Part shown: positions 1 through 32,918 of the stretch, piece by piece
Layout: every line of letters begins with the position of its first letter
How positions within the stretch are numbered: position 1 is the stretch's first letter
NCBI RefSeq assembly: GCF_002854065.1
Contig: NZ_CP024147.1
Direction: 5' to 3' (one strand)
From: Escherichia coli
GTDB taxonomy: Bacteria > Pseudomonadota > Gammaproteobacteria > Enterobacterales > Enterobacteriaceae
Length of the DNA stretch: 64,000 nucleotides
The notes under the pieces: generated by a model
Database searches by the model: none
What the model saw: only the letters and a program-made list of their open reading frames with translations
What the model was told of the DNA's origin: nothing
Made by a program: the position numbers and the translations under genes

Positions 1-152
1 CTTTTTAGGGAGCAAGTAAGTCTAAGCAAACCTTAACAGCAGAGAATTCCGATATTAGATGTAAATATATGTCTATCTATTTGAAAACCCTTAAGTTGTT
101 AAGGGTAACTTTACATAAAAGTGTGAACAAGCTGGCACAAATTGTTTAATGT
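1..152 (-). promoter_or_regulatory. Intergenic region downstream of ogt, probably the upstream/promoter region of fnr (fnr itself lies beyond the window edge)
   Basis: Non-coding AT-rich sequence 3-prime of ogt; in the K-12 arrangement fnr follows ogt on the same strand. No specific binding site was confidently identified. Confidence 0.3.
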
Positions 153-668
153 TTACAGCAAAAGATAACCTTCGTGGCGCAATAACCACTCTTTTCGCTG
201 AACTCCGCCTGCATATCCGGTCATGGTGCCGTTTCGGCCAATAACCCGATGGCAAGGTACGACGATGCTGATGGGATTCGATCCGTTTGCCGCACCAACG
301 GCACGCGCCGCGCCAGGGCGGCCCAATTGTTCAGCCAGTTGGCCGTAATGCATTACCTGCCCGCAGGGAATGGTGCGTAGTGTTTTCCAGACTTCGCGCT
401 GAAATGGCGTCCCCCCTGTGGCAGTGGGAAGCGTATCAATAATGCTAAGATTACCGGCAAAATAATCACGAAGCTTGTCGCTTAAACCGCCTGGGTTGGT
501 GGCAGAAATGCGCTCATAGCCTTCTTTGCGATAATGGATGTCCAGAAGCTGCACCATGCGTTCGCTGTACTCTTCCCATTCAACCGCCCGCAGACGAAAT
601 TGCTCATCGCAAATCACCCACAGTGGACCCAGTGGCGTGGCAATTTTTTCTTCAAGTAATCTCAGCAT
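153..668 (-). CDS. ogt: O6-methylguanine-DNA methyltransferase
   Basis: 171-aa ORF with the PCHRV active-site cysteine motif; sequence recognised as Ogt. Confidence 0.92.
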
Positions 669-678
669 CCGTTCTCTC

Positions 679-747
679 TTAAGACAAACGTGGGTAAATC
701 CCCGGACCTATCGGCAGACCAACAAGATACCACGCCAGCAACATCAG
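679..747 (-). pseudogene. abgT: 3-prime remnant of abgT (aminobenzoyl-glutamate transporter) truncated by IS1
   Basis: Minus-strand reading ends ...[22 protein letters not shown]-stop a few bp upstream of the ogt start and runs directly into the IS1 end at 748; hydrophobic transporter-like C-terminus. Identity inferred from the K-12 neighbourhood. Confidence 0.55.
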
Positions 748-802
748 GGTGATGCTGCCAACTTACTGATTTAGTGTATGATGGTGTTTTTGAGGTGCTC
801 CA

Positions 803-1078
803 GTGGCTTCTGTTTCTATCAGCTGTCCCTCCTGTTCAGCTACTGACGGGGTGGTGCGTAACGGCAAAAGCACTGCCGGACATCAGCGCTATCTCTGCTC
901 TCACTGCCGTAAAACATGGCAACTGCAGTTCACTTACACCGCTTCTCAACCCGGTACGCACCAGAAAATCATTGATATGGCCATGAATGGCGTTGGATGC
1001 CGGGCAACCGCCCGCATTATGGGCGTTGGCCTCAACACGATTTTCCGCCATTTAAAAAACTCAGGCCGCAGTCGGTAA
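803..1078 (+). CDS. insA: IS1 InsA (transposition inhibitor / N-terminal part of transposase)
   Basis: 91-aa [43 protein letters not shown]..., recognised as InsA. Confidence 0.93.
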
Positions 1079-1500
1079 CCTCGCGCATACAGCCGGGCAG
1101 TGACGTCATCGTCTGCGCGGAAATGGACGAACAGTGGGGATACGTCGGGGCTAAATCGCGCCAGCGCTGGCTGTTTTACGCGTATGACAGGCTCCGGAAG
1201 ACGGTTGTTGCGCACGTATTCGGTGAACGCACTATGGCGACGCTGGGGCGTCTTATGAGCCTGCTGTCACCCTTTGACGTGGTGATATGGATGACGGATG
1301 GCTGGCCGCTGTATGAATCCCGCCTGAAGGGAAAGCTGCACGTAATCAGCAAGCGATATACGCAGCGAATTGAGCGGCATAACCTGAATCTGAGGCAGCA
1401 CCTGGCACGGCTGGGACGGAAGTCGCTGTCGTTCTCAAAATCGGTGGAGCTGCATGACAAAGTCATCGGGCATTATCTGAACATAAAACACTATCAATAA
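997..1500 (+). CDS. insB: IS1 InsB reading frame (expressed as InsAB' transposase by a -1 frameshift at A6C)
   Basis: 167-aa ORF in the -1 frame relative to insA, overlapping its 3-prime end; A6C slippery motif at 1054..1060. Confidence 0.9.
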
Positions 1501-1515
1501 GTTGGAGTCATTACC

Positions 1516-1656
1516 GGTTCGTAGCTGACTAAACGTGAGTTCTTGCATCAACAGTCGCGCCGCGCTATTGGCATAAATTAACTGTTCCTCAAAGGGCGAA
1601 ACGATCCAGACAGGACTGGTGAGTAAGTCCAGGGTATTGAAGTTGTGCGTAATCAT
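1516..1656 (-). pseudogene. dgcM: 5-prime remnant (47 codons) of diguanylate cyclase dgcM (ydaM) truncated by IS1
   Basis: Minus-strand reading MITHNFNTLDLLTSPVWIVSPFEEQLIYANSAARLLMQELTFSQLRT runs directly into the IS1 right end at 1515; divergent from zntB as in K-12. Identity is from memory of the DgcM N-terminus and gene context. Confidence 0.6.
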
Positions 1657-1889
1657 TGAGATCCCATTATTTTTATCAATTTTTGTTGCTATCCGATCGC
1701 AAAAAAGCCACATCATATGATCAGATAATTCTGATAATGATAGACGCTATTTAACACTTCACACGGTTTGTATACGGAAAAGCATTTTGCTTTTTGTATT
1801 CAATTTAGACAGAATTTTATTAATCATTTCAGGGTAATGGGGTGATGAGATGTTGCGTAACAGGGCCAGAAGGCTAGACTACAAAATAA

Positions 1890-2894
<1,005 letters not shown>

Positions 2895-2940
2895 CAAAAG
2901 CAATTTTTCCGGCTATCTGTATACAAAAACGCCGCAAAGT

Positions 2941-2954
2941 TTGAGCGAAGTCAA
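2941..2954 (+). promoter_or_regulatory. FNR-type box TTGAGCGAAGTCAA upstream of FnrS
   Basis: Matches TTGAT-N4-ATCAA at 8 of 10 positions; centred about 41 bp upstream of the proposed FnrS 5-prime end, as expected for a class II FNR promoter. Confidence 0.6.
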
Positions 2955-2989
2955 TAAACTCTCTACCCATTCAGGGCAATATCTCTCTT

Positions 2990-3111
2990 GCAGGTGAATG
3001 CAACGTCAAGCGATGGGCGTTGCGCTCCATATTGTCTTACTTCCTTTTTTGAATTACTGCATAGCACAATTGATTCGTACGACGCCGACTTTGATGAGTC
3101 GGCTTTTTTTT
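2990..3111 (+). ncRNA. fnrS: FnrS small regulatory RNA (FNR-activated, Hfq-dependent)
   Basis: Sequence GCAGGTGAATGCAACGTCAAGCGATGGGCG...CTTACTTCCTTTTTTGAATTACTGCATAGC... ending in hairpin GCCGACTttgatgAGTCGGC plus T8; lies in the zntB-dbpA intergenic region, where fnrS maps in K-12. Confidence 0.8.
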
Positions 3112-3168
3112 GCCTGTTATTTATCAGCGTCTACCCTTTAAGAGTCCACCCAATGACCGGAGGGAAAT

Positions 3169-3342
3169 ATGACGACACTTATTTATTTGCAAATTCCTGT
3201 CCCTGAACCGATTCCTGGCGATCCTGTTCCAGTTCCCGATCCGATCCCTCGCCCGCAACCCATGCCTGACCCACCACCCGATGAAGAACCGATTAAATTG
3301 TCGCATCGTGAGCGTAGATCTGCGAGGATACGCGCCTGCTAA
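3169..3342 (+). CDS. Small proline-rich protein (57 aa), possibly the K-12 small protein annotated in the zntB-dbpA gap
   Basis: ATG preceded by GGAGGG; translation MTTLIYLQIPVPEPIPGDPVPVPDPIPRPQPMPDPPPDEEPIKLSHRERRSARIRAC. Below the 60-aa cutoff of the ORF track. Coding status unverified. Confidence 0.4.
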   Translation: MTTLIYLQIPVPEPIPGDPVPVPDPIPRPQPMPDPPPDEEPIKLSHRERRSARIRAC

Positions 3343-3371
3343 CTTTGCGTCGATGACCACGAGAATAGATT

Positions 3372-4745
3372 GTGACCGCTTTTTCTACCCTGAATGTTTT
3401 GCCTCCCGCCCAACTCACGAACCTTAATGAGTTGGGTTATTTAACCATGACGCCGGTGCAGGCCGCCGCGCTTCCGGCGATCCTTGCCGGAAAAGATGTT
3501 CGCGTGCAGGCGAAAACTGGCAGCGGCAAAACGGCGGCTTTTGGCCTCGGCTTGTTACAGCAAATTGATGCGTCGCTATTTCAAACCCAGGCTTTAGTGC
3601 TGTGTCCTACGCGTGAACTGGCGGATCAGGTGGCAGGTGAATTGCGTCGGCTGGCGCGTTTTCTGCCAAATACCAAAATTTTGACGTTGTGCGGTGGTCA
3701 ACCGTTCGGTATGCAGCGTGATTCGTTGCAACATGCGCCGCATATTATCGTGGCAACGCCGGGCCGTTTGCTGGATCACCTGCAAAAAGGCACGGTATCA
3801 CTGGATGCGCTGAATACTTTGGTGATGGATGAGGCCGACCGCATGCTGGATATGGGATTTAGCGATGCCATTGATGATGTCATCCGTTTTGCGCCGGCAT
3901 CTCGACAGACGCTTCTGTTTTCGGCAACCTGGCCGGAAGCCATCGCCGCAATCAGCGGACGAGTGCAACGCGATCCTTTGGCGATTGAAATTGACTCAAC
4001 AGATGCTTTGCCACCCATTGAACAACAATTTTATGAGACATCCAGTAAAGGCAAAATTCCTCTGTTGCAACAGTTATTAAGCTTGCATCAGCCATCCTCT
4101 TGCGTGGTGTTTTGCAATACCAAAAAAGATTGCCAGGCTGTCTGCGACGCGCTGAATGAAGTAGGGCAAAGTGCATTGTCATTACACGGCGATTTGGAGC
4201 AACGCGATCGCGATCAGACCCTGGTACGTTTTGCTAACGGTAGCGCCCGTGTACTGGTCGCGACTGATGTTGCTGCGCGTGGTCTGGATATTAAATCGCT
4301 TGAGCTGGTGGTGAACTTTGAGCTGGCGTGGGACCCTGAAGTTCATGTACATCGCATCGGTCGTACAGCTCGTGCAGGAAATAGCGGTCTGGCGATCAGT
4401 TTCTGTGCTCCGGAAGAAGCACAGCGGGCCAATATCATTTCTGACATGTTGCAGATAAAACTTAACTGGCAAACGCCGCCAGCTAATAGTTCCATTGTGA
4501 CGCTGGAAGCAGAAATGGCAACGTTGTGTATCGATGGCGGGAAAAAAGCCAAAATGCGCCCGGGTGATGTATTAGGTGCACTGACAGGAGATATCGGGCT
4601 TGATGGCGCAGATATAGGCAAAATCGCCGTGCATCCGGCGCATGTCTATGTCGCGGTCCGTCAGGCTGTTGCTCATAAAGCATGGAAACAGTTACAGGGC
4701 GGGAAGATTAAAGGAAAAACGTGCCGGGTGCGGTTATTAAAATAA
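3372..4745 (+). CDS. dbpA: ATP-dependent RNA helicase DbpA (DEAD-box, 23S rRNA-specific)
   Basis: 457-aa ORF with GSGKT Walker A and DEAD (VMDEADRML) motifs; GTG start. Confidence 0.93.
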   Translation: MTAFSTLNVLPPAQLTNLNELGYLTMTPVQAAALPAILAGKDVRVQAKTGSGKTAAFGLGLLQQIDASLFQTQALVLCPTRELADQVAGELRRLARFLPNTKILTLCGGQPFGMQRDSLQHAPHIIVATPGRLLDHLQKGTVSLDALNTLVMDEADRMLDMGFSDAIDDVIRFAPASRQTLLFSATWPEAIAAISGRVQRDPLAIEIDSTDALPPIEQQFYETSSKGKIPLLQQLLSLHQPSSCVVFCNTKKDCQAVCDALNEVGQSALSLHGDLEQRDRDQTLVRFANGSARVLVATDVAARGLDIKSLELVVNFELAWDPEVHVHRIGRTARAGNSGLAISFCAPEEAQRANIISDMLQIKLNWQTPPANSSIVTLEAEMATLCIDGGKKAKMRPGDVLGALTGDIGLDGADIGKIAVHPAHVYVAVRQAVAHKAWKQLQGGKIKGKTCRVRLLK

Positions 4746-4782
4746 TGAAATGTTGAATTGCCGGGTGCAAGAGTAAACATCT

Positions 4783-4866
4783 TATTCGGGATTGCCGGAT
4801 GCGACGCTGGCCGCGTCTTATCCGGCCTCCATAAGAGTAGCCCGATACGCTTGCGCATCGGGCGCT
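4783..4866. repeat. REP/BIME-type extragenic palindromic elements
   Basis: GCCGGATGCGACGC...CTTATCCGGCC and GCCCGATACGCTTGCGCATCGGGC palindromic units between the convergent dbpA and ttcA. Confidence 0.7.
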
Positions 4867-4873
4867 ATCCTGG

Positions 4874-5809
4874 TTATTTCACTTCAACCACATTCAGCCG
4901 TAACTCATCCAACTGATTTTCATCTTCTTCTGGCTGCCAGCCCGCCGGTTGTAGTGGGATCTCTTCGCGATCAAACGCCAGATCACCCCCGTTAACCACT
5001 TCAGAACCGTGGGTGATGCCTTTGAAATCGAACAGGTTGGTATCGCACAGATGCGACGGCACCACATTCTGCATCGCGCTGAACATCGTCTCGATACGCC
5101 CTGGATAACGTTTATCCCAGTCACGCAACATGTCAGCAATCACCTGACGTTGCAGGTTAGGCTGTGAACCGCACAGGTTGCACGGAATAATGGGGAACGC
5201 TTTTGCATCGGCAAATCGCTGAATATCTTTCTCGCGGCAGTAGGCCAGCGGACGAATAACGATATGTTTGCCATCATCGCTCATCAGTTTCGGAGGCATA
5301 CCTTTCATCTTGCCGCCGTAGAACATATTTAAGAACAGCGTCTGCAGGATATCGTCACGATGGTGACCCAGCGCGATCTTCGTCGCCCCCAGTTCCGTTG
5401 CGGTACGATAAAGAATACCGCGACGAAGGCGAGAACACAGTGAGCAAGTGGTTTTGCCCTCTGGAATCTTCTCTTTCACGATACCGTAAGTGTTCTCTTC
5501 AACAATCTTGTACTCAACGCCCAGCTTTTCAAGATACTCGGGCAGAACGTGCTCCGGGAAGCCCGGTTGCTTTTGATCGAGGTTAACAGCCACCAGCGAA
5601 AAATTGATTGGCGCGCTTTGCTGCAAATTGCGCAGAATCTCCAGCATGGTATAGCTGTCTTTACCCCCGGAGAGGCAAACCATGATGCGATCGCCTTCTT
5701 CAATCATATTGAAGTCAGCAATGGCTTCGCCCACGTTACGACGCAGGCGTTTTTGTAATTTGTTCAGGTTGTATTGTTCTTTCTTGCTAATTTCTTGATT
5801 TTGCGACAT
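4874..5809 (-). CDS. ttcA: tRNA 2-thiocytidine(32) synthetase TtcA
   Basis: 311-aa ORF with PP-loop SGGKDS and Cys-X-X-Cys motifs. Confidence 0.92.
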
Positions 5810-5951
5810 TTAAAAGCGACTCAATTCGTTATATGGCATCAGAAGAGTATGCGTCATGCCGGAACGCCCAGCATAAGAAATCTGATATAAAAACTGTGGC
5901 GTGTATGGTACGGATTAGAGAGGAAAATGTCAGCACATTTGCGAAATGAAT

Positions 5952-5977
5952 CAAAAAGCCCGCAGCAATGTGCGGGC
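5952..5977 (-). terminator. Rho-independent terminator downstream of uspF
   Basis: GCCCGCA/TGCGGGC hairpin followed by a U-run on the minus strand, just 3-prime of the uspF stop. Confidence 0.7.
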
Positions 5978-5984
5978 GTTAGTG

Positions 5985-6500
<516 letters not shown>

Positions 6501-6525
6501 TTAGATCAAAGGAGGAATAATAAGC

Positions 6526-6551
6526 AGAAAAAGCCCGCCATAACAGCGGGC
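6526..6551 (-). terminator. Rho-independent terminator downstream of ompN
   Basis: GCCCGC...GCGGGC hairpin followed by a U-run on the minus strand immediately after the ompN stop. Confidence 0.7.
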
Positions 6552-6559
6552 AGGAGGAT

Positions 6560-7693
6560 TTAGAACTGATAAACCAGACCTAAAGCGACAATATCATCGG
6601 TAGAGATGCCGTTGGCAGCGTAGAAACTGTCATCTTCATCCAACAGGTTGATTTTATAGTCAACATAAGTGGACATGTTTTTATTGAAATAGTAAGTCGC
6701 GCCAACATCGGCGTATTTAACCAGATCTTTATCATCAACACCTGCCGGGTTGTCTGCACCACCGGCAGCGTGCAGGTCACGGCCTTTAGACATCAGGAAA
6801 GAGACTGCCGGACGCAGACCAAAATCAAACTGGTACTGTGCAGTGACTTCAAAGTTCTGGGTTTTGTTCGCAACTGCATAATCGCTGTCGCCAAACGGGG
6901 TCATATTACGCGTTTCTGAATACATGGTTGCCAGGTAAATATTGTTAGCATCGTATTTTAGCCCAGCAGTCCACGCGTCTGCTTTATCACCACCCGCCGC
7001 AGTATGGTTAACCTGGTCATTGGTGCGGTCAGAAGAGGTGTATGCCGCACCAGCGCTAAAGCCCATGCCTAAATCATATGTTGTGGAAAGACCCCAGCCG
7101 TCACCGTTTTCATGGCGAACATCACGTCCGTTGTTGGTGCCTTCCTGACCATTACTGGCACCTTCGTTGTTACCTTGATACTGCACCGCGAAGTTCAGAC
7201 CATTTACCAGACCGAAGAAATCAGTATTACGATAAGTCGCGACGCCATTGGCACGACCAGTCATAAAGTTGTCTGCATTGGTATAAGAGTCACCGCCAAA
7301 TTCAGGCAGCATATCGGTCCAGCCTTCGATGTCGTACATTACGCCATAATTACGTCCGTAATCGAAAGAACCGTAATCTGCAAATTTCAGTCCGGCAAAT
7401 GCCAGACGGGTCCATGACTGGTTTTTTGAAGATTCAGTGTTGTTTGCCTGAATATTGTATTCCCATTGACCGTAGCCAGTAAGTTGATCGTTAATTTGGG
7501 TTTCGCCTTTAAAACCCAGACGCGCATAGCTCTGGTCGCCATCTTTCGCTGAATTATCAGAAAAATAATGCAGGCCATCAACTTTGCCATACAGATCTAA
7601 TTTGTTGCCGTCTTTATTATAAACTTCGGCTGCATGTGCAGCACCTGCGGCGATCAGGGCAGGAATTAAAAGTGCCAGTACTTTGCTTTTCAT
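6560..7693 (-). CDS. ompN: Outer membrane porin OmpN
   Basis: 377-aa ORF with signal peptide [21 protein letters not shown], porin beta-barrel features and C-terminal ...LVYQF. Confidence 0.9.
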
Positions 7694-7920
7694 TGAATAA
7701 ATCCTTTAGTTATTTTATTTGCCTTTTATCCCCATTTCGGGGAGTGAAAACATCCTAAAGGAGAAGTTCAGTTAGCCGATAAATATCATTTGTTACGCCT
7801 TAAGTAAAACCTTAATCAAATAATTCCTCTGAAATGATAATAAGTCTGGTGAATGTATCGAAGATAATACATACAAAATAAAAATTATACTTTTTATTTT
7901 CTATACGTTATTCTGCGCGG

Positions 7921-8029
7921 GTTATATGCCTTTATTGTCACAGATTTTATTTTCTGTTGGGCCATTGCATTGCCACTGATTTTCCAACATATAAAAAGAC
8001 AAGCCCGAACAGTCGTCCGGGCTTTTTTT
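7921..8029 (+). ncRNA. micC: MicC small RNA (Hfq-dependent repressor of ompC)
   Basis: Sequence GTTATATGCCTTTATTGTCACAGATTTTATTTTCTGTTGGGCC... ending in GCCCGAACAGTCGTCCGGGC plus T7; sits in the ompN-pfo intergenic region, divergent from ompN. Confidence 0.85.
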
Positions 8030-8057
8030 AGAATTGGATAATCCTTATCCAGAGCAT

Positions 8058-11000
8058 TTAATCGGTGTTGCTTTTTTCCGCTTTTCCGGCCATTTGTGCC
8101 AGGAAGTCATAGCGTTTTTGCAAATCAGCTGCAGCATCTTTCCATAACTGTTCTGCCACTTCTGGCTGCTGCGAATTCAGACGACGGAAACGTTGCTCGT
8201 GAAGTAACGTTTCTTCCAGTGCTTCTGACGGCGGGCGTGAATCCAGCGCCAGCGGCAGTTTGCCTTCATCGGCACGACGCGGATCGAAGCGATATAGCGG
8301 CCAGAAGCCGGTAGCTGTGAGTTGGCGCATCTGGTCATGGCTGAGTGCCAGATCGTAACCATGCTCTTCACACGGGCTATAAGCAATGATCAGCGATGGT
8401 CCCGGATACGCTTCCGCTTCCTGAATCGCTTTCACCGTCTGGTTCAGTTGCGCGCCGAGAGAAATCTGCGCCACATAAACATGACCGTACATCATCATAC
8501 TGACGCCAAGATCTTTACGCGCTTTACGTTTGCCGTGCTCGCCAAATTTAGTTACTGCACCCAGCGGTGTCGCTTTCGACGCCTGACCACCGGTGTTGGA
8601 ATAGCATTGCGTATCCAGCACCAGAATGTTGACGTTTTCCGTCAAACTCAATACATGATCCAGACCGCCAAAGCCGATATCGTAAGCCCAGCCGTCGCCA
8701 CCAATCAGCCAGATTGATTTTTCTACCAGTGCATCTGCGTCACGCAGCAGTTCATGTGCTTCGGCAACATCGTTGAGTTGCTGGCGTAAAGCTGCGACCT
8801 GTTCTCGACGAACCTCTGGCGTAGCGTCTGATTTCAACGCCGTCAGTAATTCCGCCGGGATTTTATCGGCAAATTGATCCAGCAGACGCAGCACGCGGAC
8901 ACGGTGTTGATCGACCGTCAGGCGGAAACCAAGGCCAAATTCGGCATTATCTTCAAATAGAGAGTTCGCCCATGCCGGCCCACGACCGTTGGCATCGGTG
9001 GTATACGGTGTAGAGGGCAGGTTACCGCCATAAATTGAAGAACAGCCGGTGGCGTTAGCGATCAACATCCGGTCGCCATAGAGCTGAGTCAGCAATTTAA
9101 TATACGGCGTCTCGCCACAACCGGAGCAAGCACCGGAATATTCAAACAGCGGTGTAATCAGCTGCGATGTACGAATATCAATACGTTCCAGTTTGCTACG
9201 GTCTATTTCTGGCAGGTTGAGGAAGAAATCGTAATTGATTTTCTCTTCTTCGACATGTTCCAGGCGAGACATCATATTGATGGCTTTAATCTCTGGATTC
9301 TGACGGTCTTTCGCCGGGCAAACTTCGACGCACAGGTTACAACCGGTGCAATCTTCCGGTGCCACCTGCAAGACATATTTCTGCCCGCGCATATCACGCG
9401 ATTTCACATCCAGCGAATGCAGGCTGGCAGGGGCGTTTTCCATCGCTTCAGGCGGCACCACTTTTGCGCGAATAGCTGAGTGTGGGCAAGCGGCAACGCA
9501 GTGGTTACATTGGGTACAGAGTTCCTCTTTCCAGATGGGGATCTCTTCGGCGATATTGCGTTTTTCCCAGCGTGTAGTGCCCATCGGCCAGGTGCCGTCT
9601 GGCGGCAGCGCCGAAACGGGGAGGGCATCACCAAGCCCGGCGAGCATCGCAGCGGTTACGGTTTTCACGAAATCAGGGGCGGCATCGGAAACCACTGGCG
9701 GTCGATTGGCGCTGTGCGGATTTACCGGTTGCAACGGAACTTCTTCTACGGATTCACGCGCCAGCGCCAGAGCCTGCCAGTTGCGCTCCACCAGATCCTG
9801 GCCTTTGCTACTGTAACTTTTGGCAATCGCACCCTGCAATTCTGCGAGGGCGCTATCGCCAGGCAGAATTTGCGTCAGATGGAAAAAAGCCATCTGCATG
9901 ACGGTATTAATACGGGCCGCCAGGCCACATTCGCGGGCGATTTTCGCTGCGTTAATCACATAGAAGCACGCTTTTTTCTGGTTTAACACGGCCTGAACTT
10001 CTTGCGGCAAGCGCGACCACACTTCATCTGCGCTGTACGGCGTGTTGAGCAGGAAAATGCCGCCAGGTTTTAAACGCTCAGCCATCTGATATTTATCGAT
10101 AAACTGCAACTGGTGGCAGCCAACAAAATCAGCCTGGGAAATGAGATAAGCGGAACGAATCGGCTGTTCGCTCACTCGAAGGTGAGAAACCGTCAGACCG
10201 CCCGCCTTTTTGGAGTCGTAAACAAAATAGCCCTGTGCGTACCACGGCGTGGAATTACCGATAATCTTGATATTGTTTTTGGTCGCGGAAACGCTGCCAT
10301 CACTACCAAGGCCATAAAACAAGGCTTCCAGTTTCGCCGAGTTTGGCAGGGTGTTTTCCGGCAACGGCAGTGACAGATTGGTCACATCATCGTAAATACC
10401 AACCGTAAAGCGCGCTTTCGGTTTAGCCGCGTTGAGCTCGGCAAATACCGCCAGTACACAGTCCGGGCCAAATTCTTTGGATGAAAGACCATAGCGCCCA
10501 CCAATGACACGGGGCAGAGTTTCGCGCTCGCCATTATTAAAGGCTTCTGCCAGTGCGGTCATTACATCCAGATAGAGCGGTTCTGCCTGGGCACCGGGTT
10601 CTTTGGTTCTGTCCAGTACCGCTACGCTGCGTACGGATCCCGGCAGAGCTTGCAGCAAGTGTTTGGCGGAGAAGGGACGGTACAGGCGAACTTTCAGCAC
10701 GCCAACTTTTTCGCCACGGGTTAGCAATTCATCAACCACTTCTTCACAGGTGCCAATGGCAGAGCCCATCAGGATAATCACCCGTTCCGCTTGCGGATGC
10801 CCGTAATATTCAAACGGCTGATACTGACGACCTGTCGCGGCAGAGAAATCATTCATCGCCTGTTCAACATGGTCATAGACCGCGTTGTACCATGGGTTGG
10901 TGGCTTCGCGAGACTGGAAATAAGTGTCAGGATTGGCGGACGTACCGCGGATCACCGGATGTTCCGGGTTGAGCGCCCGGGCGCGATGAGCATCAATTTC

Positions 11001-11582
11001 GGCCTGCGGCATGAGATCAAGAATAGTGTCATCGGCCAGCGGGACAATTTTATTGATTTCGTGGGACGTACGGAAACCATCAAAGAAATGAATAAATGGC
11101 ACGCGGCTTTTCAGCGTCGCGATGTGCGAAATGAGAGCAAAGTCTTGCGCTTCCTGGACGTTTGCCGCACACAACATCGCGCAACCCGTCTGGCGCACCG
11201 CCATGACGTCGGAATGATCGCCAAAAATAGAGAGTGCATGTGTGGCAACGGTACGTGCCGCTACATGCAGGACAAACGGTGTGAGTTCGCCTGCCAGTTT
11301 GTACAGCGTCGGGATCATCAGCAGCAAACCCTGCGATGACGTAAACGATGTTGAAAGGGCACCCGTCTGCAAAGCGCCATGCACGGTAGCGATAGCACCC
11401 GCTTCCGACTGCATTTCAACCACGCGTGGTGTGTCTCCCCAAACGTTCTTCAAGCCGTTTCCGGCCCAGGCATCAGCCTGTTCTGCCATCGTGGAACTGG
11501 GGGTAATAGGGTAGATGGCGATAACTTCACTGGTGCGAAACGCCACCGAAGCAACCGCGCCATTACCGTCAATAGTAATCAT
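8058..11582 (-). CDS. pfo: Pyruvate:flavodoxin oxidoreductase (PFOR family)
   Basis: 1174-aa ORF with 4Fe-4S ferredoxin cysteine clusters (CTQCNHCVAACP, CTGCNLCVEVCP) and a TPP-binding domain; recognised as YdbK. Confidence 0.92.
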   Translation of the reverse strand: MITIDGNGAVASVAFRTSEVIAIYPITPSSTMAEQADAWAGNGLKNVWGDTPRVVEMQSEAGAIATVHGALQTGALSTSFTSSQGLLLMIPTLYKLAGELTPFVLHVAARTVATHALSIFGDHSDVMAVRQTGCAMLCAANVQEAQDFALISHIATLKSRVPFIHFFDGFRTSHEINKIVPLADDTILDLMPQAEIDAHRARALNPEHPVIRGTSANPDTYFQSREATNPWYNAVYDHVEQAMNDFSAATGRQYQPFEYYGHPQAERVIILMGSAIGTCEEVVDELLTRGEKVGVLKVRLYRPFSAKHLLQALPGSVRSVAVLDRTKEPGAQAEPLYLDVMTALAEAFNNGERETLPRVIGGRYGLSSKEFGPDCVLAVFAELNAAKPKARFTVGIYDDVTNLSLPLPENTLPNSAKLEALFYGLGSDGSVSATKNNIKIIGNSTPWYAQGYFVYDSKKAGGLTVSHLRVSEQPIRSAYLISQADFVGCHQLQFIDKYQMAERLKPGGIFLLNTPYSADEVWSRLPQEVQAVLNQKKACFYVINAAKIARECGLAARINTVMQMAFFHLTQILPGDSALAELQGAIAKSYSSKGQDLVERNWQALALARESVEEVPLQPVNPHSANRPPVVSDAAPDFVKTVTAAMLAGLGDALPVSALPPDGTWPMGTTRWEKRNIAEEIPIWKEELCTQCNHCVAACPHSAIRAKVVPPEAMENAPASLHSLDVKSRDMRGQKYVLQVAPEDCTGCNLCVEVCPAKDRQNPEIKAINMMSRLEHVEEEKINYDFFLNLPEIDRSKLERIDIRTSQLITPLFEYSGACSGCGETPYIKLLTQLYGDRMLIANATGCSSIYGGNLPSTPYTTDANGRGPAWANSLFEDNAEFGLGFRLTVDQHRVRVLRLLDQFADKIPAELLTALKSDATPEVRREQVAALRQQLNDVAEAHELLRDADALVEKSIWLIGGDGWAYDIGFGGLDHVLSLTENVNILVLDTQCYSNTGGQASKATPLGAVTKFGEHGKRKARKDLGVSMMMYGHVYVAQISLGAQLNQTVKAIQEAEAYPGPSLIIAYSPCEEHGYDLALSHDQMRQLTATGFWPLYRFDPRRADEGKLPLALDSRPPSEALEETLLHEQRFRRLNSQQPEVAEQLWKDAAADLQKRYDFLAQMAGKAEKSNTD

Positions 11583-11855
11583 ATGACACCCTTACATTGC
11601 GCAAATGAGGGGCGCACGAAATTGCTGCGCGCCCAGTAGTAATCTTTCAATTTTAGCAAATGGCTTTCTTCTGCATTTTCGCTTTTGTGTCCCCCACATC
11701 AGAGTAATGAATGTTTTGATCAAACAGAGGGCAAAAAAATAGCCATAAAAAAGTAAAAATGCGGGGCAACGCGCAGGACAGCTCTCGACGCCGCCCTCTG
11801 TGCTGCCTATTATTTATGGCGGTGTCGTTTGGCTTGAAGATCAGAGGAAGAAGAG

Positions 11856-12122
11856 ATGCGAGCAGCGTTTTGGGTAGGGTGTGCCGCTTTATTGTTGTCG
11901 GCGTGTAGTAGTGAGCCTGTTCAGCAGGCGACTGCGGCGCACGTAGCGCCAGGTTTAAAAGCGTCGATGTCCAGTAGTGGAGAAGCAAATTGTGCAATGA
12001 TCGGCGGTTCGCTTTCTGTTGCCCGTCAACTGGATGGTACGGCGATTGGGATGTGTGCATTACCCAACGGCAAACGCTGTAGCGAACAGTCACTTGCCGC
12101 CGGGAGCTGTGGCAGCTATTAA
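11856..12122 (+). CDS. ydbJ: Small lipoprotein YdbJ (DUF333)
   Basis: 88-aa ORF with lipobox LLSAC. Confidence 0.8.
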   Translation: MRAAFWVGCAALLLSACSSEPVQQATAAHVAPGLKASMSSSGEANCAMIGGSLSVARQLDGTAIGMCALPNGKRCSEQSLAAGSCGSY

Positions 12123-12541
12123 TTCATTAAATCCGCCAGCTTATAAGTTAATGTCTGTTTCGCGGTCGCCAGCGTTAACTGGTTCGCGGTCAGATCCACT
12201 TGTGCACCTTCTTTCAGCATTTCGCTAATGGTGTTATCGAGTTCATTAAGCTGCGGGTTAGCGCACATCATACGGGTCATTGCCAGCCCTTTGGCTGTCA
12301 GTTCACCATTAGACAGTTTGCCTTCACCGCTAAAGCGGTTACACATGCTGCCGGAAATCATCATTTTTTCACCAAAGCTGATTTCTGGCGGATTTTTATC
12401 GCTGGTCACGGGCTTACCGTTTACGCTTTCCAGCACAAAGCGATGATGCTGTAGCTGTTCTGGCGTAACAGCAATTTTGTCATTACTTACACATCCCGCC
12501 ATCAGCAGGCTTAGCGCAACAAACGCGGCTACTTTCTTCAT
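12119..12541 (-). CDS. hslJ: Heat-shock lipoprotein HslJ
   Basis: 140 aa from MKKVAAFVALSLLMAGC (lipobox). The ORF-track start at 12553 is a 4-codon extension. Confidence 0.88.
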   Translation of the reverse strand: MKKVAAFVALSLLMAGCVSNDKIAVTPEQLQHHRFVLESVNGKPVTSDKNPPEISFGEKMMISGSMCNRFSGEGKLSNGELTAKGLAMTRMMCANPQLNELDNTISEMLKEGAQVDLTANQLTLATAKQTLTYKLADLMN

Positions 12542-12651
12542 TGTGGTTCTCAATTACAGTTTCTGACTCAGGACTATTTTAAGAATAGAGAATGAAAGGT
12601 CATTGGGGATTATCTGAATCAGCTCCCCTGGATTGCAGGGGAGCGGCAAGA

Positions 12652-13641
12652 TTAAACCAGTTCGTTCGGGCAGGTTTCACCTTTTTCCAGATTGCTTAAG
12701 TTTTGCAGCGTAGTCTGAGAAATACTGGTCAGAGCTTCTGCTGTCAGGAATGCCTGGTGCCCGGTAAACAGCACGTTGTGGCAGGCGGACAGGCGACGGA
12801 ATACGTCATCCTGGATCACGTCGTTGGATTTATCTTCAAAGAACAGATCGCGTTCGTTCTCATACACGTCCATACCCAACGAACCAATTTTCTGATTTTT
12901 CAGCGCTTCAATTGCTGCCTGAGAATCAATCAATGCACCGCGACTGGTATTGACGATCATCACGCCATTTTTCATCTGATCGAAGGCGGCTTCGTTCAAC
13001 AGATGGTAGTTTTCCGGTGTCAGCGGGCAGTGCAGAGAGATAACGTCTGATTCAGAGAACAGGGTTGGCAGATCGACATACTCCACACCGAGTTCCAGCG
13101 CCGCTGCACTTGGATACGGATCGAACGCCAGCAGACGCATACCAAAACCTTTCAGAATGCGCAGCATCGCCACACCGATTTTACCGGTACCGATAACGCC
13201 TGCCGTTTTGCCATACATAGTAAAGCCAGTCAGACCTTCTAGAGAGAAGTTGGCGTCACGGGTACGCTGATACGCGCGGTGAATACGGCGGTTCAGCGTC
13301 ATCATCATACCGATGGCGTGTTCAGCAACGGCCTCTGGATCATAGGCTGGAACACGGACTACTTTCAGCCCCAGTTCTTTTGCCGCGTCAAGGTCGACGT
13401 TATTGAAACCGGCACAGCGCAGGGCGATATATTTAACGCCGTGCTTTTTCAGCTCTTCCAGCACCGGGCGGCTGCCGTCATCGTTTACGAAAATACATAC
13501 TGCTTCGCAGCCATTGGCAGTTTTAGCGGTTTTTTCCGTCAGCAGAAAGTCAAAAAATTCCAGCTCAAAGCCAAAGGACTCGTTCACCTGTTGCAGGTAC
13601 TTCTTGTCGTACTGTTTTGTGCTATAAACGGCGAGTTTCAT
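12652..13641 (-). CDS. ldhA: Fermentative D-lactate dehydrogenase (NAD-dependent)
   Basis: 329-aa ORF with D-isomer 2-hydroxyacid dehydrogenase NAD-binding motif GVIGTGKIG. Confidence 0.95.
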   Translation of the reverse strand: MKLAVYSTKQYDKKYLQQVNESFGFELEFFDFLLTEKTAKTANGCEAVCIFVNDDGSRPVLEELKKHGVKYIALRCAGFNNVDLDAAKELGLKVVRVPAYDPEAVAEHAIGMMMTLNRRIHRAYQRTRDANFSLEGLTGFTMYGKTAGVIGTGKIGVAMLRILKGFGMRLLAFDPYPSAAALELGVEYVDLPTLFSESDVISLHCPLTPENYHLLNEAAFDQMKNGVMIVNTSRGALIDSQAAIEALKNQKIGSLGMDVYENERDLFFEDKSNDVIQDDVFRRLSACHNVLFTGHQAFLTAEALTSISQTTLQNLSNLEKGETCPNELV

Positions 13642-13848
13642 AAGACTTTCTCCAGTGATGTTGAATCACATTTAAGCTACTAAAAATATTTTACAAAATT
13701 TCAAATTTAATTGAAAGCTATGGCGATATTGAAAAATTCATCAACAACTATGCTTAGTGTAGGCGCAACCTTCAACTGAACGGTTAAACATGCCACAATA
13801 CCCGTATTGAATGCTTAATTTTTCGCTAAATCAGGATATTAACTACCC

Positions 13849-16488
13849 ATGCTGGGTAAATATAAAGCCGTTCTCGCGCTGTTATTACTGATTATTCTTG
13901 TGCCGTTGACGCTGCTGATGACGCTCGGGCTGTGGGTTCCCACGCTGGCGGGCATCTGGCTACCGCTCGGGACACGTATTGCATTAGATGAAAGCCCACG
14001 CATTACGCGTAAAGGTTTAATCATTCCCGATCTCCGTTATCTGGTGGGAGATTGTCAGCTTGCGCATATCACCAACGCCAGCCTTTCACATCCCAGCCGC
14101 TGGTTATTGAACGTCGGCACGGTAGAACTTGATTCTGCTTGTCTGGCGAAATTGCCGCAGACGGAGCAATCGCCAGCTGCTCCAAAAACCCTCGCGCAAT
14201 GGCAGTCCATGCTGCCTAACACCTGGATCAATATTGATAAACTGATTTTTTCTCCCTGGCAGGAATGGCAGGGAAAACTCTCTCTCGCATTAACCTCCGA
14301 TATCCAGCAACTGCGTTATCAGGGCGAAAAAGTTAAATTTCAAGGCCAGCTGAAAGGGCAACAACTTACAGTCAGCGAACTGGATGTCGTCGCGTTTGAA
14401 AATCAGCCGCCGGTTAAACTGGTGGGGGAATTTACTATGCCGCTAGTGCCGGATGGACTTCCTGTAAGTGGTCATGCTACTGCGACGTTAAACTTGCCGC
14501 AGGAACCGTCACTGGTAGATGCCGAGCTGGACTGGCAGGAAAATAGCGGGCAATTGATTGTGCTGGCACGGGATAACGGCGATCCGTTGCTCGATTTGCC
14601 GTGGCAAATTACGCGTCAACAATTGACCGTAAGCGATGGTCGCTGGAGCTGGCCGTATGCAGATTTTCCTTTGAGTGGCCGACTGGGTGTCAAAGTCGAC
14701 AACTGGCAGGCAGGGCTTGAGAACGCTCTGGTCAGCGGACGACTGAGTGTGCTGACCCAGGGGCAAGCGGGTAAGGGCAACGCGGTGCTTAATTTTGGCC
14801 CAGGAAAATTAAGCATGGATAACAGCCAGCTGCCTCTGCAGCTGACCGGTGAAGCGAAACAGGCGGACCTCATTTTATATGCCCGTTTACCTGCGCAGGT
14901 AAGTGGAAGTCTGTCTGACCCAACGCTGACCTTTGAGCCAGGCGCGTTACTTCGTTCAAAGGGAAGAGTCATCGATTCGCTGGACATCGATGAAATCCGC
15001 TGGCCTTTAGCGGGTGTAAAAGTCACCCAACGTGGTGTTGACGGACGTTTGCAGGCCATTTTGCAGGCGCATGAAAATGAACTGGGCGATTTCGTGCTGC
15101 ATATGGATGGGCTGGCGAATGATTTTCTCCCTGACGCTGGCCGCTGGCAGTGGCGCTACTGGGGAAAAGGGAGTTTTACACCGATGAATGCCACCTGGGA
15201 TGTCGCAGGAAAAGGTGAGTGGCATGACAGCACGATTACGCTGACCGATCTCTCCACCGGTTTCGACCAGTTACAATACGGTACGATGACGGTAGAAAAG
15301 CCGCGATTAATTCTCGACAAGCCCGTCGTCTGGGTACGTGACGCACAGCATCCCTCCTTCAGCGGCACGCTGTCACTGGACGCCGGGCAAACGCTGTTCA
15401 CTGGCGGCAGTGTGTTACCGCCATCAACCTTAAAATTTAGCGTCGATGGGCGCGATCCGACGTATTTCCTCTTTAAAGGCGATTTACATGCTGGTGAGAT
15501 TGGCCCGGTTCGGGTAAATGGTCGCTGGGACGGTATTCGTCTGCGCGGTAATGCCTGGTGGCCTAAACAATCACTGACTGTATTCCAGCCGCTGGTGCCA
15601 CCCGACTGGAAGATGAACTTACGCGATGGTGAACTGTATGCTCAGGTTGCATTTTCTGCTGCGCCTGAACAAGGATTCCGCGCGGGAGGGCACGGCGTGT
15701 TGAAAGGCGGTAGTGCCTGGATGCCAGATAATCAGGTTAACGGTGTCGATTTTGTCCTGCCTTTCCGTTTTGCCGATGGAGCCTGGCATCTGGGGACTCG
15801 CGGCCCCGTTACGTTGCGAATTGCCGAAGTGATTAATCTGGTGACAGCGAAAAATATTACGGCTGATTTGCAAGGGCGTTATCCGTGGACTGAAGAAGAA
15901 CCATTGCTGTTGACTGATGTTAGCGTCGATGTGTTAGGCGGTAACGTGCTGATGAAACAATTACGTATGCCGCAACATGACCCGGCGCTGTTGCGGCTGA
16001 ATAATCTCTCATCCAGCGAACTGGTTAGCGCCGTCAATCCGAAACAATTTGCCATGTCCGGGGCATTTAGTGGTGCATTGCCGTTATGGCTGAACAATGA
16101 AAAATGGATTGTCAAAGAGGGCTGGTTGGCAAACGCGGGGCCGATGACGCTGCGTCTGGATAAAGACACTGCAGATGCGGTGGCCAAAGACAATATGACC
16201 GCTGGAACTGCCATCAACTGGTTGCGTTATATGGAAATCAGTCGCTCATCAACAAGGATTAATTTAGATAATCTCGGTGTGTTAACCATGCAGGCCAACA
16301 TTTCGGGCACCAGTCGCGTCGATGGTAAAAGCGGTACGGTAAACCTTAATTATCACCATGAAGAGAATATTTTTACGTTATGGCGCAGTTTACGCTTTGG
16401 CGATAATCTCCAGGTATGGCTGGAGCAGAATGCCCAGCTACCGGAAACTGGCTGCCCATCAGGAAAAGAGTGTGAGGAAAAACAATGA
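13849..16488 (+). CDS. ydbH: AsmA-like inner-membrane protein YdbH (TamB/YhdP paralogue)
   Basis: 879-aa ORF with N-terminal TM anchor and a long beta-rich periplasmic region. Confidence 0.88.
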   Translation: MLGKYKAVLALLLLIILVPLTLLMTLGLWVPTLAGIWLPLGTRIALDESPRITRKGLIIPDLRYLVGDCQLAHITNASLSHPSRWLLNVGTVELDSACLAKLPQTEQSPAAPKTLAQWQSMLPNTWINIDKLIFSPWQEWQGKLSLALTSDIQQLRYQGEKVKFQGQLKGQQLTVSELDVVAFENQPPVKLVGEFTMPLVPDGLPVSGHATATLNLPQEPSLVDAELDWQENSGQLIVLARDNGDPLLDLPWQITRQQLTVSDGRWSWPYADFPLSGRLGVKVDNWQAGLENALVSGRLSVLTQGQAGKGNAVLNFGPGKLSMDNSQLPLQLTGEAKQADLILYARLPAQVSGSLSDPTLTFEPGALLRSKGRVIDSLDIDEIRWPLAGVKVTQRGVDGRLQAILQAHENELGDFVLHMDGLANDFLPDAGRWQWRYWGKGSFTPMNATWDVAGKGEWHDSTITLTDLSTGFDQLQYGTMTVEKPRLILDKPVVWVRDAQHPSFSGTLSLDAGQTLFTGGSVLPPSTLKFSVDGRDPTYFLFKGDLHAGEIGPVRVNGRWDGIRLRGNAWWPKQSLTVFQPLVPPDWKMNLRDGELYAQVAFSAAPEQGFRAGGHGVLKGGSAWMPDNQVNGVDFVLPFRFADGAWHLGTRGPVTLRIAEVINLVTAKNITADLQGRYPWTEEEPLLLTDVSVDVLGGNVLMKQLRMPQHDPALLRLNNLSSSELVSAVNPKQFAMSGAFSGALPLWLNNEKWIVKEGWLANAGPMTLRLDKDTADAVAKDNMTAGTAINWLRYMEISRSSTRINLDNLGVLTMQANISGTSRVDGKSGTVNLNYHHEENIFTLWRSLRFGDNLQVWLEQNAQLPETGCPSGKECEEKQ

Positions 16489-16670
16489 AAATAGTGATAG
16501 CCGCGTTTGCGTCCTCTTTTATGTTGGTTGGTTGCACGCCTCGCATTGAAGTGGCTGCGCCGAAAGAGCCAATCACCATTAATATGAACGTTAAAATTGA
16601 GCATGAAATCATCATTAAAGCGGATAAGGACGTTGAAGACCTGCTCAAAACCCGTAGCGATCTATTTTGA
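16485..16670 (+). CDS. ynbE: Lipoprotein YnbE
   Basis: 61-aa ORF with lipobox MLVGC; 4-bp overlap (ATGA) with the ydbH stop. Confidence 0.85.
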   Translation: MKIVIAAFASSFMLVGCTPRIEVAAPKEPITINMNVKIEHEIIIKADKDVEDLLKTRSDLF

Positions 16671-16674
16671 GGTG

Positions 16675-17001
16675 ATGATGAAAAGAACATTACTCATAGC
16701 TGTATGGGCCATTGGCCTGATGAGCGACAGTGCAATGGCTTTAACCCTGAACGAAGCCAGAAGTCAGGGGCGGGTAGGTGAAACGCTTAACGGTTACCTG
16801 GTGGCGCTACAAACGGATGCCGAAACACAGGCATTAGTAAAAGATATTAATGAAGCTCGTAACCATAGTTATCAACAACTGGCAAAGCAAAATAATGTAT
16901 CCACTAAAGAGATAGCCAAACTGGCTGGACAAAAGCTTGTTGCTCGCGCGAAGTCGGGGCAATATGTTCAGGGAATTAATGGTAAATGGTTGCGCAAATA
17001 A
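16675..17001 (+). CDS. ydbL: Periplasmic protein YdbL (DUF1318)
   Basis: 108 aa from MMKRTLLIAVWAIGLMSDSAMA (signal peptide); start 5 bp after the ynbE stop. Confidence 0.82.
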   Translation: MMKRTLLIAVWAIGLMSDSAMALTLNEARSQGRVGETLNGYLVALQTDAETQALVKDINEARNHSYQQLAKQNNVSTKEIAKLAGQKLVARAKSGQYVQGINGKWLRK

Positions 17002-17408
17002 ATTATAGTTGGCTACAAAATGTATCTATTAATGATCTTTTACAGTATTTAAACTGACGTTAGCATGCTTAATTACCGTGGGTATTTCTACAAAAACCTT
17101 ATATATCCTTCCCTTAAATAACAAATCATTACCAATATATATGTAATCACAAAATATATATGCAGCGTCAATGAATTATTAGTGTGTTTTTGTTTTTTGT
17201 CGTTAATTTTTAGATTGAAGTGAGTTTTTTGTGGAATATAATTCCATCAACTGTTTTTTTGTATGCTTTTACTTGCCTGATTTTAATATTGATTTTGTGA
17301 ATTATATAAGCATTTCTTTATTGCTTATTTCACTATGAATATTTACTACGATTTATCTTCAAATTCTGCATGGCTTGTTACGCACGGTCTAGATCTAAGG
17401 AATTTTAT

Positions 17409-20400
17409 ATGCAAAGGAAAAAATTATTGTCTGTTTGTGTTGCCATGGCGTTAAGTAGCCAGACATGGGCTGCGGATACTTCAATACCCGACTCAACCGA
17501 AAAAACACGTAAGTCCAGTAAGATAACATGTCCGGCAAATATTCATTCCCTGAGCAAAGAGCAGCTAGAAAATTTATCCGCGGAGTGCAGAGAAAATAAA
17601 GATAGTGCAGTTTTACCATGGGCAGCTGCAGGTCTTGCTGCAGTAGCTACGGGAATTGCTATATATACCTTAAGTGACGATGACAATCACCACCATAATA
17701 ACTCCCCAGTTCCGGATGATGGCGGTGATACGCCAGTTCCGCCAGACGACGGCGGTGATACGCCGGTTCCGCCAGATGACGGCGGTGATACGCCGGTTCC
17801 GCCAGATGACGGCGGTGATACGCCAGTTCCGCCAGATGACGGCGGTGATACGCCAGTTCCGCCAGATGACGGCGATGATACGCCGGTTCCGCCAGATGAC
17901 GGCGGTGATACGCCAGTTCCGCCAGATGACGGCGGTGATACGCCAGTTCCGCCAGATGACGGCGGTGATACGCCGGTTCCACCAGATGATGGCGGTGATA
18001 CGCCAGTTCCAGACGACGGCGGTGATACGCCTGTTCCGCCAGACGATGGTGGCGATACCCCGGTTAAACACGATCCTGTCGTCTATAAAAATGACGTAAC
18101 CTGGGATCAGGACGCGAAAACCGTCAAAATTCGCGAAACCACCTTTACCTACAGCCAAAATGCCGATGGGAGTTACACCTTAACCGCGCCTGATGGCCTG
18201 ACGACGATAGTCAAGGGCTGGACAGTCCATGACGACAGCAACACCGTCATCTTTGATGGCGTAAATACGGCAGGTGGCATCACCTGGAGCTACGACGATG
18301 ATGGGCTCATCCATATCACTAAAGAGGCCGGTGTCGTTGTTGATGGCACAACCGGAACTGCGATTGATTTTGGTAATGCGATCATCACCGATCAGGGCGG
18401 CAATACGGCGCTGAATGGCGGTACTGTCATGACGGTTGAGGGTGACAACATCACCCTCAACAACGACGGTAAAACGACCGCCATCGGCGAGGGTTCGGTC
18501 GTTGGTATCCTTACTGGTGACGATATCACTATCAATAACAACGGCGAGACGGAAGTTGACGGCGGTACCGCAGTAATCATCAATGGCGATAATGCTACGC
18601 TGAACACTGCGGGCGACTCGACCATCACCAATGGTGGTACGGGTAGCCTTATCAATGGCGATAATGCGCGGGTCGATAATCAAGGTACCATGAGCGTTGA
18701 CGGTGAGAATTCCACTGGCTCGAAAATTGTCGGTGACGGTGCCACCATCAAACAGGAAGGCGACTTATACGTAAGCGGTGGTGCGCACGGTATTGACGTT
18801 GACGGCAATGATACGTTCGTTAGCAACAAAGGTAATATTACGGTCATCGAAGATAACTCTATTGGCATGCTGCTTGATGGTGATGGCGTCAGCGTGATCA
18901 ACATGGGCGACCTCAATGTTGGTCAGGCCGCAGCGGGTGAAAATGCCATTGGCATTCAGATCGACGGTGATAATGCGACATTTGTTAACGTTGGTGATAT
19001 TTCCGCGACCAATGCCGGAACCGGTGTCAGCGTTGCTGGGGATAAAGCTAATATTTCACTCGCGGGTGGGTTAGACGTTGGGGATTTCTCCACCGGTCTT
19101 GATGTCTCTGGCAATAATAACAACATGACGCTGGCGACTTATGAGCTGAATGTGACAGGGCAAAAAGCGACGGGTGTTAATGTTTCGGGTGATGGCAATA
19201 CGATTGAAATCGCAGGCAGCATTCTGGTTGATAAAGATCAGAAAGCCGATAATGCGCAACCTTACTTCTTTAATCCCTCAACCGGCGTAAATATCAGCGG
19301 TAATAACAATGACGTCACGCTGGATGGTCAGTTAACCGTTGTTGCTGATAGCGAAACCACTACGCGTTCCTATGCAAGTTACGACGGTGCTCAGGAGCAC
19401 ATTGCGGGTATTGTTATTGCTGGCGATGACAATACCTTCACGCTTAATGGCGGTGTCCATTTTGTCGGTGAAAAAAATGTCATGGATGATGGCTCAAAAC
19501 CTGCCGCATCTCGTCGTGGTATCGGAGATACACCGCTTATGAGCGTTGATGGGCATTCCTCAGTCTACCTCAATGGTGAGTCAACCATCAGCGGTGAGTT
19601 CCCGCTGGGTTTCGAAAATCTCATTCAACTGAGTAATGGCGCGGAGCTGGAGATTGGCGCTGACGCAACGTTTGATATGAGTGATGTGGATTCTTTCACT
19701 TATTATTATCGTGTAGCGTTATCCACTATTAGTATTGATTATGGTGCGAAGGCGACAAACAACGGTGAAGTGGAACTGAAAAATATCGGTTTTGCGGCTG
19801 CCTGGAATAAAGATTCAACGGTAATCAATAACGGATCCATTGGCCTGGCGATGTACGATTTTGGTACCGACCCGGCACCAAAAGTCTTTGACGTTGAATA
19901 CGGTGGGATTGGCGTTAACAATGGTACCATGACCACCAAAATGATGAATCAGCACAGTGTGCTGAATTATCCGGCAGAGTGGAACTTGTCTGATGGTACC
20001 TCTTTCAATAACAAGGCATTAGGGCTGACAGGTATGCTTGCCAGCTACTCGTCATCCATTCTGAACGGCGAAACGGGCATTATTGATATGTATGGCCGTG
20101 GCAGTGTAGGGATGCTAGCCATCGATAAATCAACCGCGGATAACGAAGGGCAAATCACCCTGGATACGCTGTGGGTTGATGAAAATGATGAAACATCGCT
20201 GCGTAATAATGTTGCAAATAGCACGGCGAAAGATTTCGGTGTGGGAATGGCTTCAGGTACCGATGCCTATAATGGGGCATTAACTAAAGCCACGGCAACC
20301 AACCACGAGAATGGTGTGATTACTGTCTACAACGCCGGTGCGGGGATGGCGGCGTATGGGAATACTAATACGGTCATTAACCAGGGAACCATCAACCTGG

Positions 20401-23273: not shown

Positions 23274-23294
23274 TTTTTAGCATGTGATACACAA

Positions 23295-23326
23295 ACCGCA
23301 ACGCTGATACAGGTTGCGGTTTTTTA
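23295..23326 (+). terminator. Rho-independent terminator downstream of ydbA
   Basis: ACCGCAAC...GTTGCGGT hairpin followed by TTTTT; a partial REP-like GCCGGATGCGACGC follows. Confidence 0.8.
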
Positions 23327-23492
23327 TTGCCGGATGCGACGCTTGACTTATCTTTTGCTGTCTAATGTTTTGGTGTCTTTCAGGACAATAGTGCTACTCA
23401 TCCAGAAATCTTGTTTACGCCTTCGCATTATTTATCTCTTTTCGTTTCTATACTGATTTTTCTTAATCCGTTTTATTACAGGGCAGGGTGCG

Positions 23493-24353: not shown

Positions 24354-24362
24354 CGAATATAC

Positions 24363-24399
24363 AAAAGGGAAAGATGCATTTCCCTTTTGTTTCTTTTTT
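24363..24399 (+). terminator. Rho-independent terminator downstream of pdxI
   Basis: AAAAGGGAAA...TTCCCTTTT hairpin followed by a T-rich run. Confidence 0.75.
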
Positions 24400-24416
24400 A
24401 ATGGCATGGAGTGCAT

Positions 24417-25715: not shown

Positions 25716-25770
25716 GGTGATGCTGCCAACTTACTGATTTAGTGTATGATGGTGTTTTTGAGGTGCTCCA

Positions 25771-26046
25771 GTGGCTTCTGTTTCTATCAGCTGTCCCTCC
25801 TGTTCAGCTACTGACGGGGTGGTGCGTAACGGCAAAAGCACTGCCGGACATCAGCGCTATCTCTGCTCTCACTGCCGTAAAACATGGCAACTGCAGTTCA
25901 CTTACACCGCTTCTCAACCCGGTACGCACCAGAAAATCATTGATATGGCCATGAATGGCGTTGGATGCCGGGCAACCGCCCGCATTATGGGCGTTGGCCT
26001 CAACACGATTTTCCGCCATTTAAAAAACTCAGGCCGCAGTCGGTAA
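25771..26046 (+). CDS. insA: IS1 InsA
   Basis: 91-aa ORF identical to insA of copy 1. Confidence 0.93.
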
Positions 26047-26468: not shown

Positions 26469-26483
26469 GTTGGAGTCATTACC

Positions 26484-26492
26484 GTCACAAGC
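26484..26492. repeat. Right 9-bp target-site duplication GTCACAAGC of IS1 copy 2
   Basis: Direct repeat of 25707..25715. Confidence 0.9.
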
Positions 26493-27500: not shown

Positions 27501-27669
27501 ATAACAGCGTAATAATTTTTAACCACTTGATTTATTGGGATAATCATTCCTGACAGTGAGTCCCCAATACCTTGATATATTCTGAATTTTTAATGAAGCG
27601 TCGTGTTGCGATATCTCCGTCAGGGGAATTGATGCACCATAGCGCAAACCGAATTATCAAGGATTGATA

Positions 27670-29171: not shown

Positions 29172-29186
29172 AGGAAAATAGAGAAA

Positions 29187-32250
<3,064 letters not shown>

Positions 32251-32303: not shown

Positions 32304-32918
<615 letters not shown>

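Follow-up and report, generated by a model that had tools for sequence, protein, structure and literature searches.

A probable vacant attachment site of Rac type at the 5' end of ttcA in an Escherichia coli chromosome

We have analysed a 64-kb stretch of an Escherichia coli chromosome (hereafter the window), and the 26 bp at positions 5760..5785, within the 5' coding end of ttcA, very probably constitute an unoccupied attB for the Rac family of lambdoid prophages, those that carry an IntR-type tyrosine integrase. The initial annotation had already pointed to a vacant attachment site here, and had located it in the intergenic DNA between ttcA and uspF (5810..5984). The vacancy is borne out by the colinear flanks and by the single copy of the core, but not the location, since the core belongs to ttcA and lies 25-50 bp to the left of that interval, that is, outside the intergenic DNA. 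An empty ttcA site is in itself an already described and very common polymorphism of E. coli. Both the emptiness and its effect on TtcA have been published (PMC4632033), so that the relevance of the present case is one of annotation context only.

Layout of the ttcA-uspF junction

The two genes that border the junction are intact and lie on the minus strand. One is ttcA, coding for the tRNA 2-thiocytidine-32 synthetase (4874..5809, minus strand, 311 aa in the ORF list), and the other is uspF, coding for universal stress protein F (5985..6419, minus strand, 144 aa), a gene annotated as uspF in the matching genomes and whose translation is one residue apart from K-12 UspF. The native spacer found upstream of ttcA and downstream of uspF (5810..5984) measures exactly 175 bp from the ttcA start codon to the uspF stop codon. 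About 175 bp had been given originally as the distance from ttcA to the uspF terminator, a figure that is right for the length but not for the endpoint, as the terminator is inside the interval and the gap runs up to the uspF stop codon. The terminator scan placed this intrinsic terminator (5948..5977, minus strand; GCCCGCACATTGCTGCGGGC then TTTTTGATTC) directly downstream of the stop codon (5985..5987), with the stem at 5958..5977 (minus strand) and TTTTT after it, all of it within the spacer.

Little else could be recognized in these 175 bp. The ORF listing has no frame of at least 60 aa wholly inside 5810..5984, and a single ORF (5946..6248, plus strand) begins within the spacer and continues antisense into uspF. 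Neither Rfam families (at gathering thresholds) nor tRNA genes (ARAGORN) were detected in the interval, and the lack of a tRNA at the junction indicates that this is not an att site of the tRNA type. The MG1655 counterpart of the spacer, from ttcC to uspF, is free of annotated features. We considered one weak promoter-like match (5933..5905, minus strand, 9/12 matches) as the native ttcA promoter and dropped it, because the number of promoter-like matches in the scan (a total of 2, with 1.8 expected from shuffles) was not above chance.

Absence of Rac from the window

In MG1655 (NC_000913.3, RefSeq annotation) the order of genes is dbpA, ttcA, Rac, the pseudogene ttcC, uspF, ompN, micC and ydbK, and the feature named “cryptic prophage Rac” occupies 1411899..1434958 (23,060 bp). 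The position of Rac given in the initial annotation, ca. 23 kb in the interval between ttcA and uspF of K-12, was thus correct, and the two genes are not neighbors in that strain, as Rac sits between them. Its gene complement includes intR, xisR, rcbA, ralR/ralA, recT, recE, racC, kilR, sieB and racR, together with ydaS to ydaW, trkG, stfR, tfaR, pinR, ynaE and others. When the K-12 region 1406000-1438000 was used as blastn query against the 64-kb window, only two segments matched, positions 1654-5942 of the K-12 locus with window 1514-5802, and positions 28960-32001 with window 5760-8798. The remaining ca. 23 kb of K-12 Rac had no match anywhere in the window. In other words, the window has in common with the K-12 lysogen (attL in ttcA, attR at ttcC) both flanks and the core sequence, and differs from it by the absence of the 23,060-bp element and of the second copy of the core.

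This agrees with the earlier statement that integrase and phage genes are missing between ttcA and uspF, as there is no such ORF in the 175-bp gap and no Rac-internal DNA in the window, and no prophage was found along the 64 kb. The Rac cargo (intR, xisR, recET, ralR/ralA, kilR, sieB, racR, trkG, stfR, pinR and others) is missing at the locus. The absence of Rac-encoded functions, as it had been proposed, holds for the ttcA-uspF locus and for the 64-kb window, which is the extent covered. The locus is therefore one without the RecET recombinase, KilR, the RalR/RalA toxin-antitoxin pair, SieB, RacR, TrkG and the tail-fibre genes.

The attachment core

The core, TTGTTCAGGTTGTATTGTTCTTTCTT (5760..5785, 26 bp), is identical in the window, in K-12 attL and in K-12 attR, and corresponds to codons 9-17 of ttcA. 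It occurs once in the 64-kb window (both strands searched) and twice in the K-12 locus, where the copies at positions 5900 and 28960 are 23,060 bp apart and mark the exact limits of the annotated Rac. The comparison with K-12 attL and attR that had been suggested as a check was carried out as a three-way alignment. On the left the window follows the attL side of K-12 as far as the core, and on the right it follows the attR side (ttcC, spacer and uspF), so that the window corresponds to the reconstituted attB with a single 26-bp core. The differences from the attR side are one base beside the core (5786, G in the window and A in K-12) and two small ones in the spacer, which over its end-to-end alignment with the K-12 attR flank shows 1 substitution and one 1-bp indel in a run of A. 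We looked for four signs to the contrary, namely a Rac gene in 5810..5984, a second core nearby, ttcA and uspF adjacent in K-12, and a TtcA beginning with MQENQQIT in the window, and none of them was found.

The same core serves Rac-like prophages at ttcA other than K-12 Rac (CP-933R, Sp10 and Rac-SA53), although these are occupied sites with elements of ca. 50 kb, whereas the site in the window is vacant. Two att sites of 26 bp are annotated in the record of phage Rac-SA53 (KU052037.1). The sequence of one, labelled “attB”, is exactly TTGTTCAGGTTGTATTGTTCTTTCTT, and the other, labelled “attP”, departs from it at 3 positions. No free phage with a core-bearing attP was found in the phage collection; the matches were host-flanked, prophage-derived records (Rac-SA53, SPF_0923 and vB_EcoS-683R6), and PHB10 gave one weak partial match. 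Judging from the 26/26 identity of the core with K-12 attL, K-12 attR and the “attB” of Rac-SA53, the site in the window would still be competent for IntR-mediated integration. Rac-like temperate phages may find here a putative free site for their integration, and some phages of this kind carry, in other strains, candidate effector-like DUF1076 cargo.

The TtcA N-terminus and a model of integration

The state of the site can also be read from the first 17 codons of ttcA (5759..5809, minus strand). In K-12 this stretch persists at attR, where it forms the pseudogene ttcC, while at attL a surrogate borne by the prophage has taken its place. The first 51 nt of ttcA in the window match ttcC of K-12 at 49/51 positions, and the prophage-supplied version at K-12 attL at 44/51. 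Accordingly, TtcA of the window begins MSQNQEIS, like the translation of K-12 ttcC and like TtcA of 100416 and LH50-c, two strains with an empty site; the full translation is identical to theirs. Compared with K-12 TtcA there are differences at residues 2, 3, 6 and 8, plus residue 290. A start of the type MQENQQIT or MQDNQQIT was found in K-12, in a second Rac-bearing strain and in a strain bearing a prophage remnant.

This variation has an experimental precedent. The excision of Rac in K-12 was shown to alter four N-terminal residues of TtcA, converting TtcA into TtcA' (Liu et al., 2015; Sci Rep 5:16074, PMC4632033), and in the same work the TtcA' form was also found in strains without a rac-like prophage and was read by the authors as ancestral. 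The window and K-12 after Rac excision have the same arrangement (ttcA with the 26-bp core, then the spacer, then uspF), and both show the same change with respect to the K-12 lysogen, S2, Q3, E6 and S8 against Q2, E3, Q6 and T8. The excised K-12 is, however, a laboratory product, while the window represents the natural state of a chromosome. We infer that TtcA is made here with its native N-terminus and that ttcA is transcribed from its native upstream region.

These features would fit a model in which an IntR-type tyrosine integrase recombines the phage attP with the 26-bp core, as expected from general knowledge of lambdoid phages and from the K-12 work (PMC4632033). Integration would split, within the core, the first eight codons of ttcA and the DNA upstream of them from the rest of the gene. 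The displaced native start would then be carried ca. 23 kb or more away to lie beside uspF, and ttcC of K-12 would be this displaced start together with the attR copy of the core. The end of the phage would bring in first eight codons that are similar, albeit not identical, along with their own upstream DNA. With such a phage-supplied start ttcA would stay open and four N-terminal residues would be altered. The window lacks this integration event, and ttcA has kept its native 5' end and upstream region, followed directly by the uspF terminator and uspF.

Frequency of the vacant site in E. coli

We searched 5,426 complete RefSeq genomes of E. coli with a 601-bp junction query (window 5600-6200), and the junction was contiguous in 2,485 of them (46%). 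The classes of non-contiguous genomes were taken from an evenly spaced sample of the ranking (n = 30). In this sample ca. one third of the genomes break exactly at window position 5760, the first base of the core, 5 out of 30 (ca. 1/6) break at position 5913, and a few keep the ttcA side alone. Inspection of individual strains illustrates what can be found at the site. In OkiPb01687 uspF is adjoined by a lambdoid prophage that carries tail genes and DUF1076 cargo, and HUM3355 has a true Rac, with intR, xisR, ralR, recT and recE beside ttcA. Occupied Rac sites such as those of K-12 and HUM3355 have an intR-type integrase just upstream of ttcA and the core doubled as attL and attR, while the window has neither.

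The inspected genome of the 5913 type, M16807 (NZ_CP031256.1, 17799..19984), carries at ttcA a decayed remnant of ca. 2.3 kb, in which one fragment of an integrase and one of a DUF1627 protein are found together with a metal ABC permease gene that has a frameshift. In this strain attR and ca. 100 bp of the spacer have been deleted and the prophage-type N-terminus of TtcA has been kept, in contrast to the full spacer and native N-terminus of the window. Strain 100416 (NZ_CM128593.1) has a 601-bp junction 100% identical to that of the window. This strain and LH50-c (NZ_CP100500.1) are natural empty-site strains with the order dbpA-ttcA-uspF-ompN-nifJ, as in the window, although both are without the IS1-associated deletion (abgT to dgcM) found upstream in it.

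Origin of the vacant site

There are several ways in which a chromosome could come to show this junction. Our preferred reading, inferred from the comparison with its relatives, is that the site is ancestral and was never occupied. The opposite reading is that a Rac-like prophage was once there and that the site was restored, either by precise excision through IntR/XisR or through recombination that brought in an empty allele from a different strain, the emptiness being then secondary. Excision of Rac is documented experimentally and regenerates exactly this attB and the TtcA' sequence (PMC4632033); besides, filled and vacant sites are each common among E. coli genomes, implying that prophages have been gained and lost here repeatedly, and the window is a mosaic in its similarity to different strains. 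Precise excision would leave the core flanked by nothing but bacterial DNA and is thus indistinguishable by sequence from a site that was never occupied. Secondary emptiness has no positive trace in its favor, and none would be expected. Nevertheless, strain 100416, which comes closest to the window in this segment (99.97% identity over 12.7 kb), likewise has an empty site with an identical junction, and inheritance of the empty site is then the simplest reading. We consider a restored site unlikely, though it deserves some weight. A more elaborate version, in which the site became empty only recently as the lineage went through IS1-driven genome reduction, and in which the loss of Rac cargo (recET, kilR, ralR, trkG) together with the reversion to native TtcA amounts to adaptive streamlining, takes its motivation from the two IS1 copies and the 7.3-kb IS1-associated deletion in the window, whose junction is in no complete E. 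coli genome. It appears to us quite improbable.

The junction could alternatively be the scar of an imprecise deletion or decay of a prophage, with no intact attB left. Scar-type remnants do occur at ttcA, as the genomes that break at 5913 and the example of M16807 make clear. The window, in contrast, can be aligned with each of the K-12 flanks base by base across its one core, preserves the complete 175-bp spacer without any integrase fragment and has a native TtcA N-terminus, and we regard a deletion scar as ruled out by this colinearity, the complete spacer and the native N-terminus. An artefact of assembly, in which a prophage was collapsed across the repeated core, is a generic possibility for any element flanked by direct repeats, with nothing in the data pointing to it. 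Against it, sequencing reads are far longer than a repeat of 26-51 bp, TtcA begins as it does in empty-site strains and the same contiguous junction appears in 2,485 independently finished genomes, so that its probability must be close to nil.

The wider window

Over its whole length, which runs from ogt to the ydcS-ydcV region, the window is colinear with the E. coli/Shigella chromosome. The main departures from reference strains are two IS1 copies and one IS1-associated deletion. The first copy (748..1515) is complete, with 768 bp, and has no target-site duplication (flanks ...caacatcag / ggttcgtag...). It stands in place of 7,339 bp of strain LH50-c that comprise most of abgT, all of abgB, abgA, abgR and smrA, and dgcM except for its first ca. 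144 nt, a loss that is consistent with an IS1-mediated adjacent deletion. The IS1/dgcM deletion junction was not found as one contiguous piece in any complete E. coli genome, the top matches being two pieces joined. The second copy (25716..26483), in the same orientation as the first and with a 9-bp target duplication (GTCACAAGC), interrupts ydbD, leaving the ORFs 24411..25742 and 26514..27500.

The window as a whole had no match among the complete E. coli genomes of the collection. Similarity was distributed as a mosaic. Positions 1513..14200 are 99.97% similar to strain 100416 and positions 50001..64000 are 100% similar to CUWW06, whereas the best match was only ca. 98-99% over 1..25000 and over 25001..50000. 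This pattern, seen at the level of sequence similarity, suggests that recombination may have taken place, or that the window may come from a source such as Shigella or a not yet sequenced E. coli lineage that the complete-genome collection does not include.

Other features are of more local interest. An intact autotransporter ORF of 1,967 aa (17370..23273), in which a 30-bp (10-aa) unit is repeated in tandem ca. 14 times at 17652..18071, occupies the position at which LH50-c has an “autotransporter domain-containing protein”. It is directly followed by pdxI, from which it follows that the paa cluster, which precedes pdxI in an O104:H4 strain, is missing from the window and likewise from this position in LH50-c and M16807. 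Two further elements of E. coli O104:H4 (FDAARGOS_348) are not present in the window, namely the 1.7-kb IS200/IS605 tnpA-insQ element beside ydcO (window 53213/53214) and the IS1 between hrpA and ydcF (window 37118..37125). The only Rfam matches in the window were four small RNAs at their expected positions, FnrS (2990..3107), MicC (7918..8038), RydC (41494..41557) and sokB, the antitoxin RNA of the hokB locus (42117..42268).
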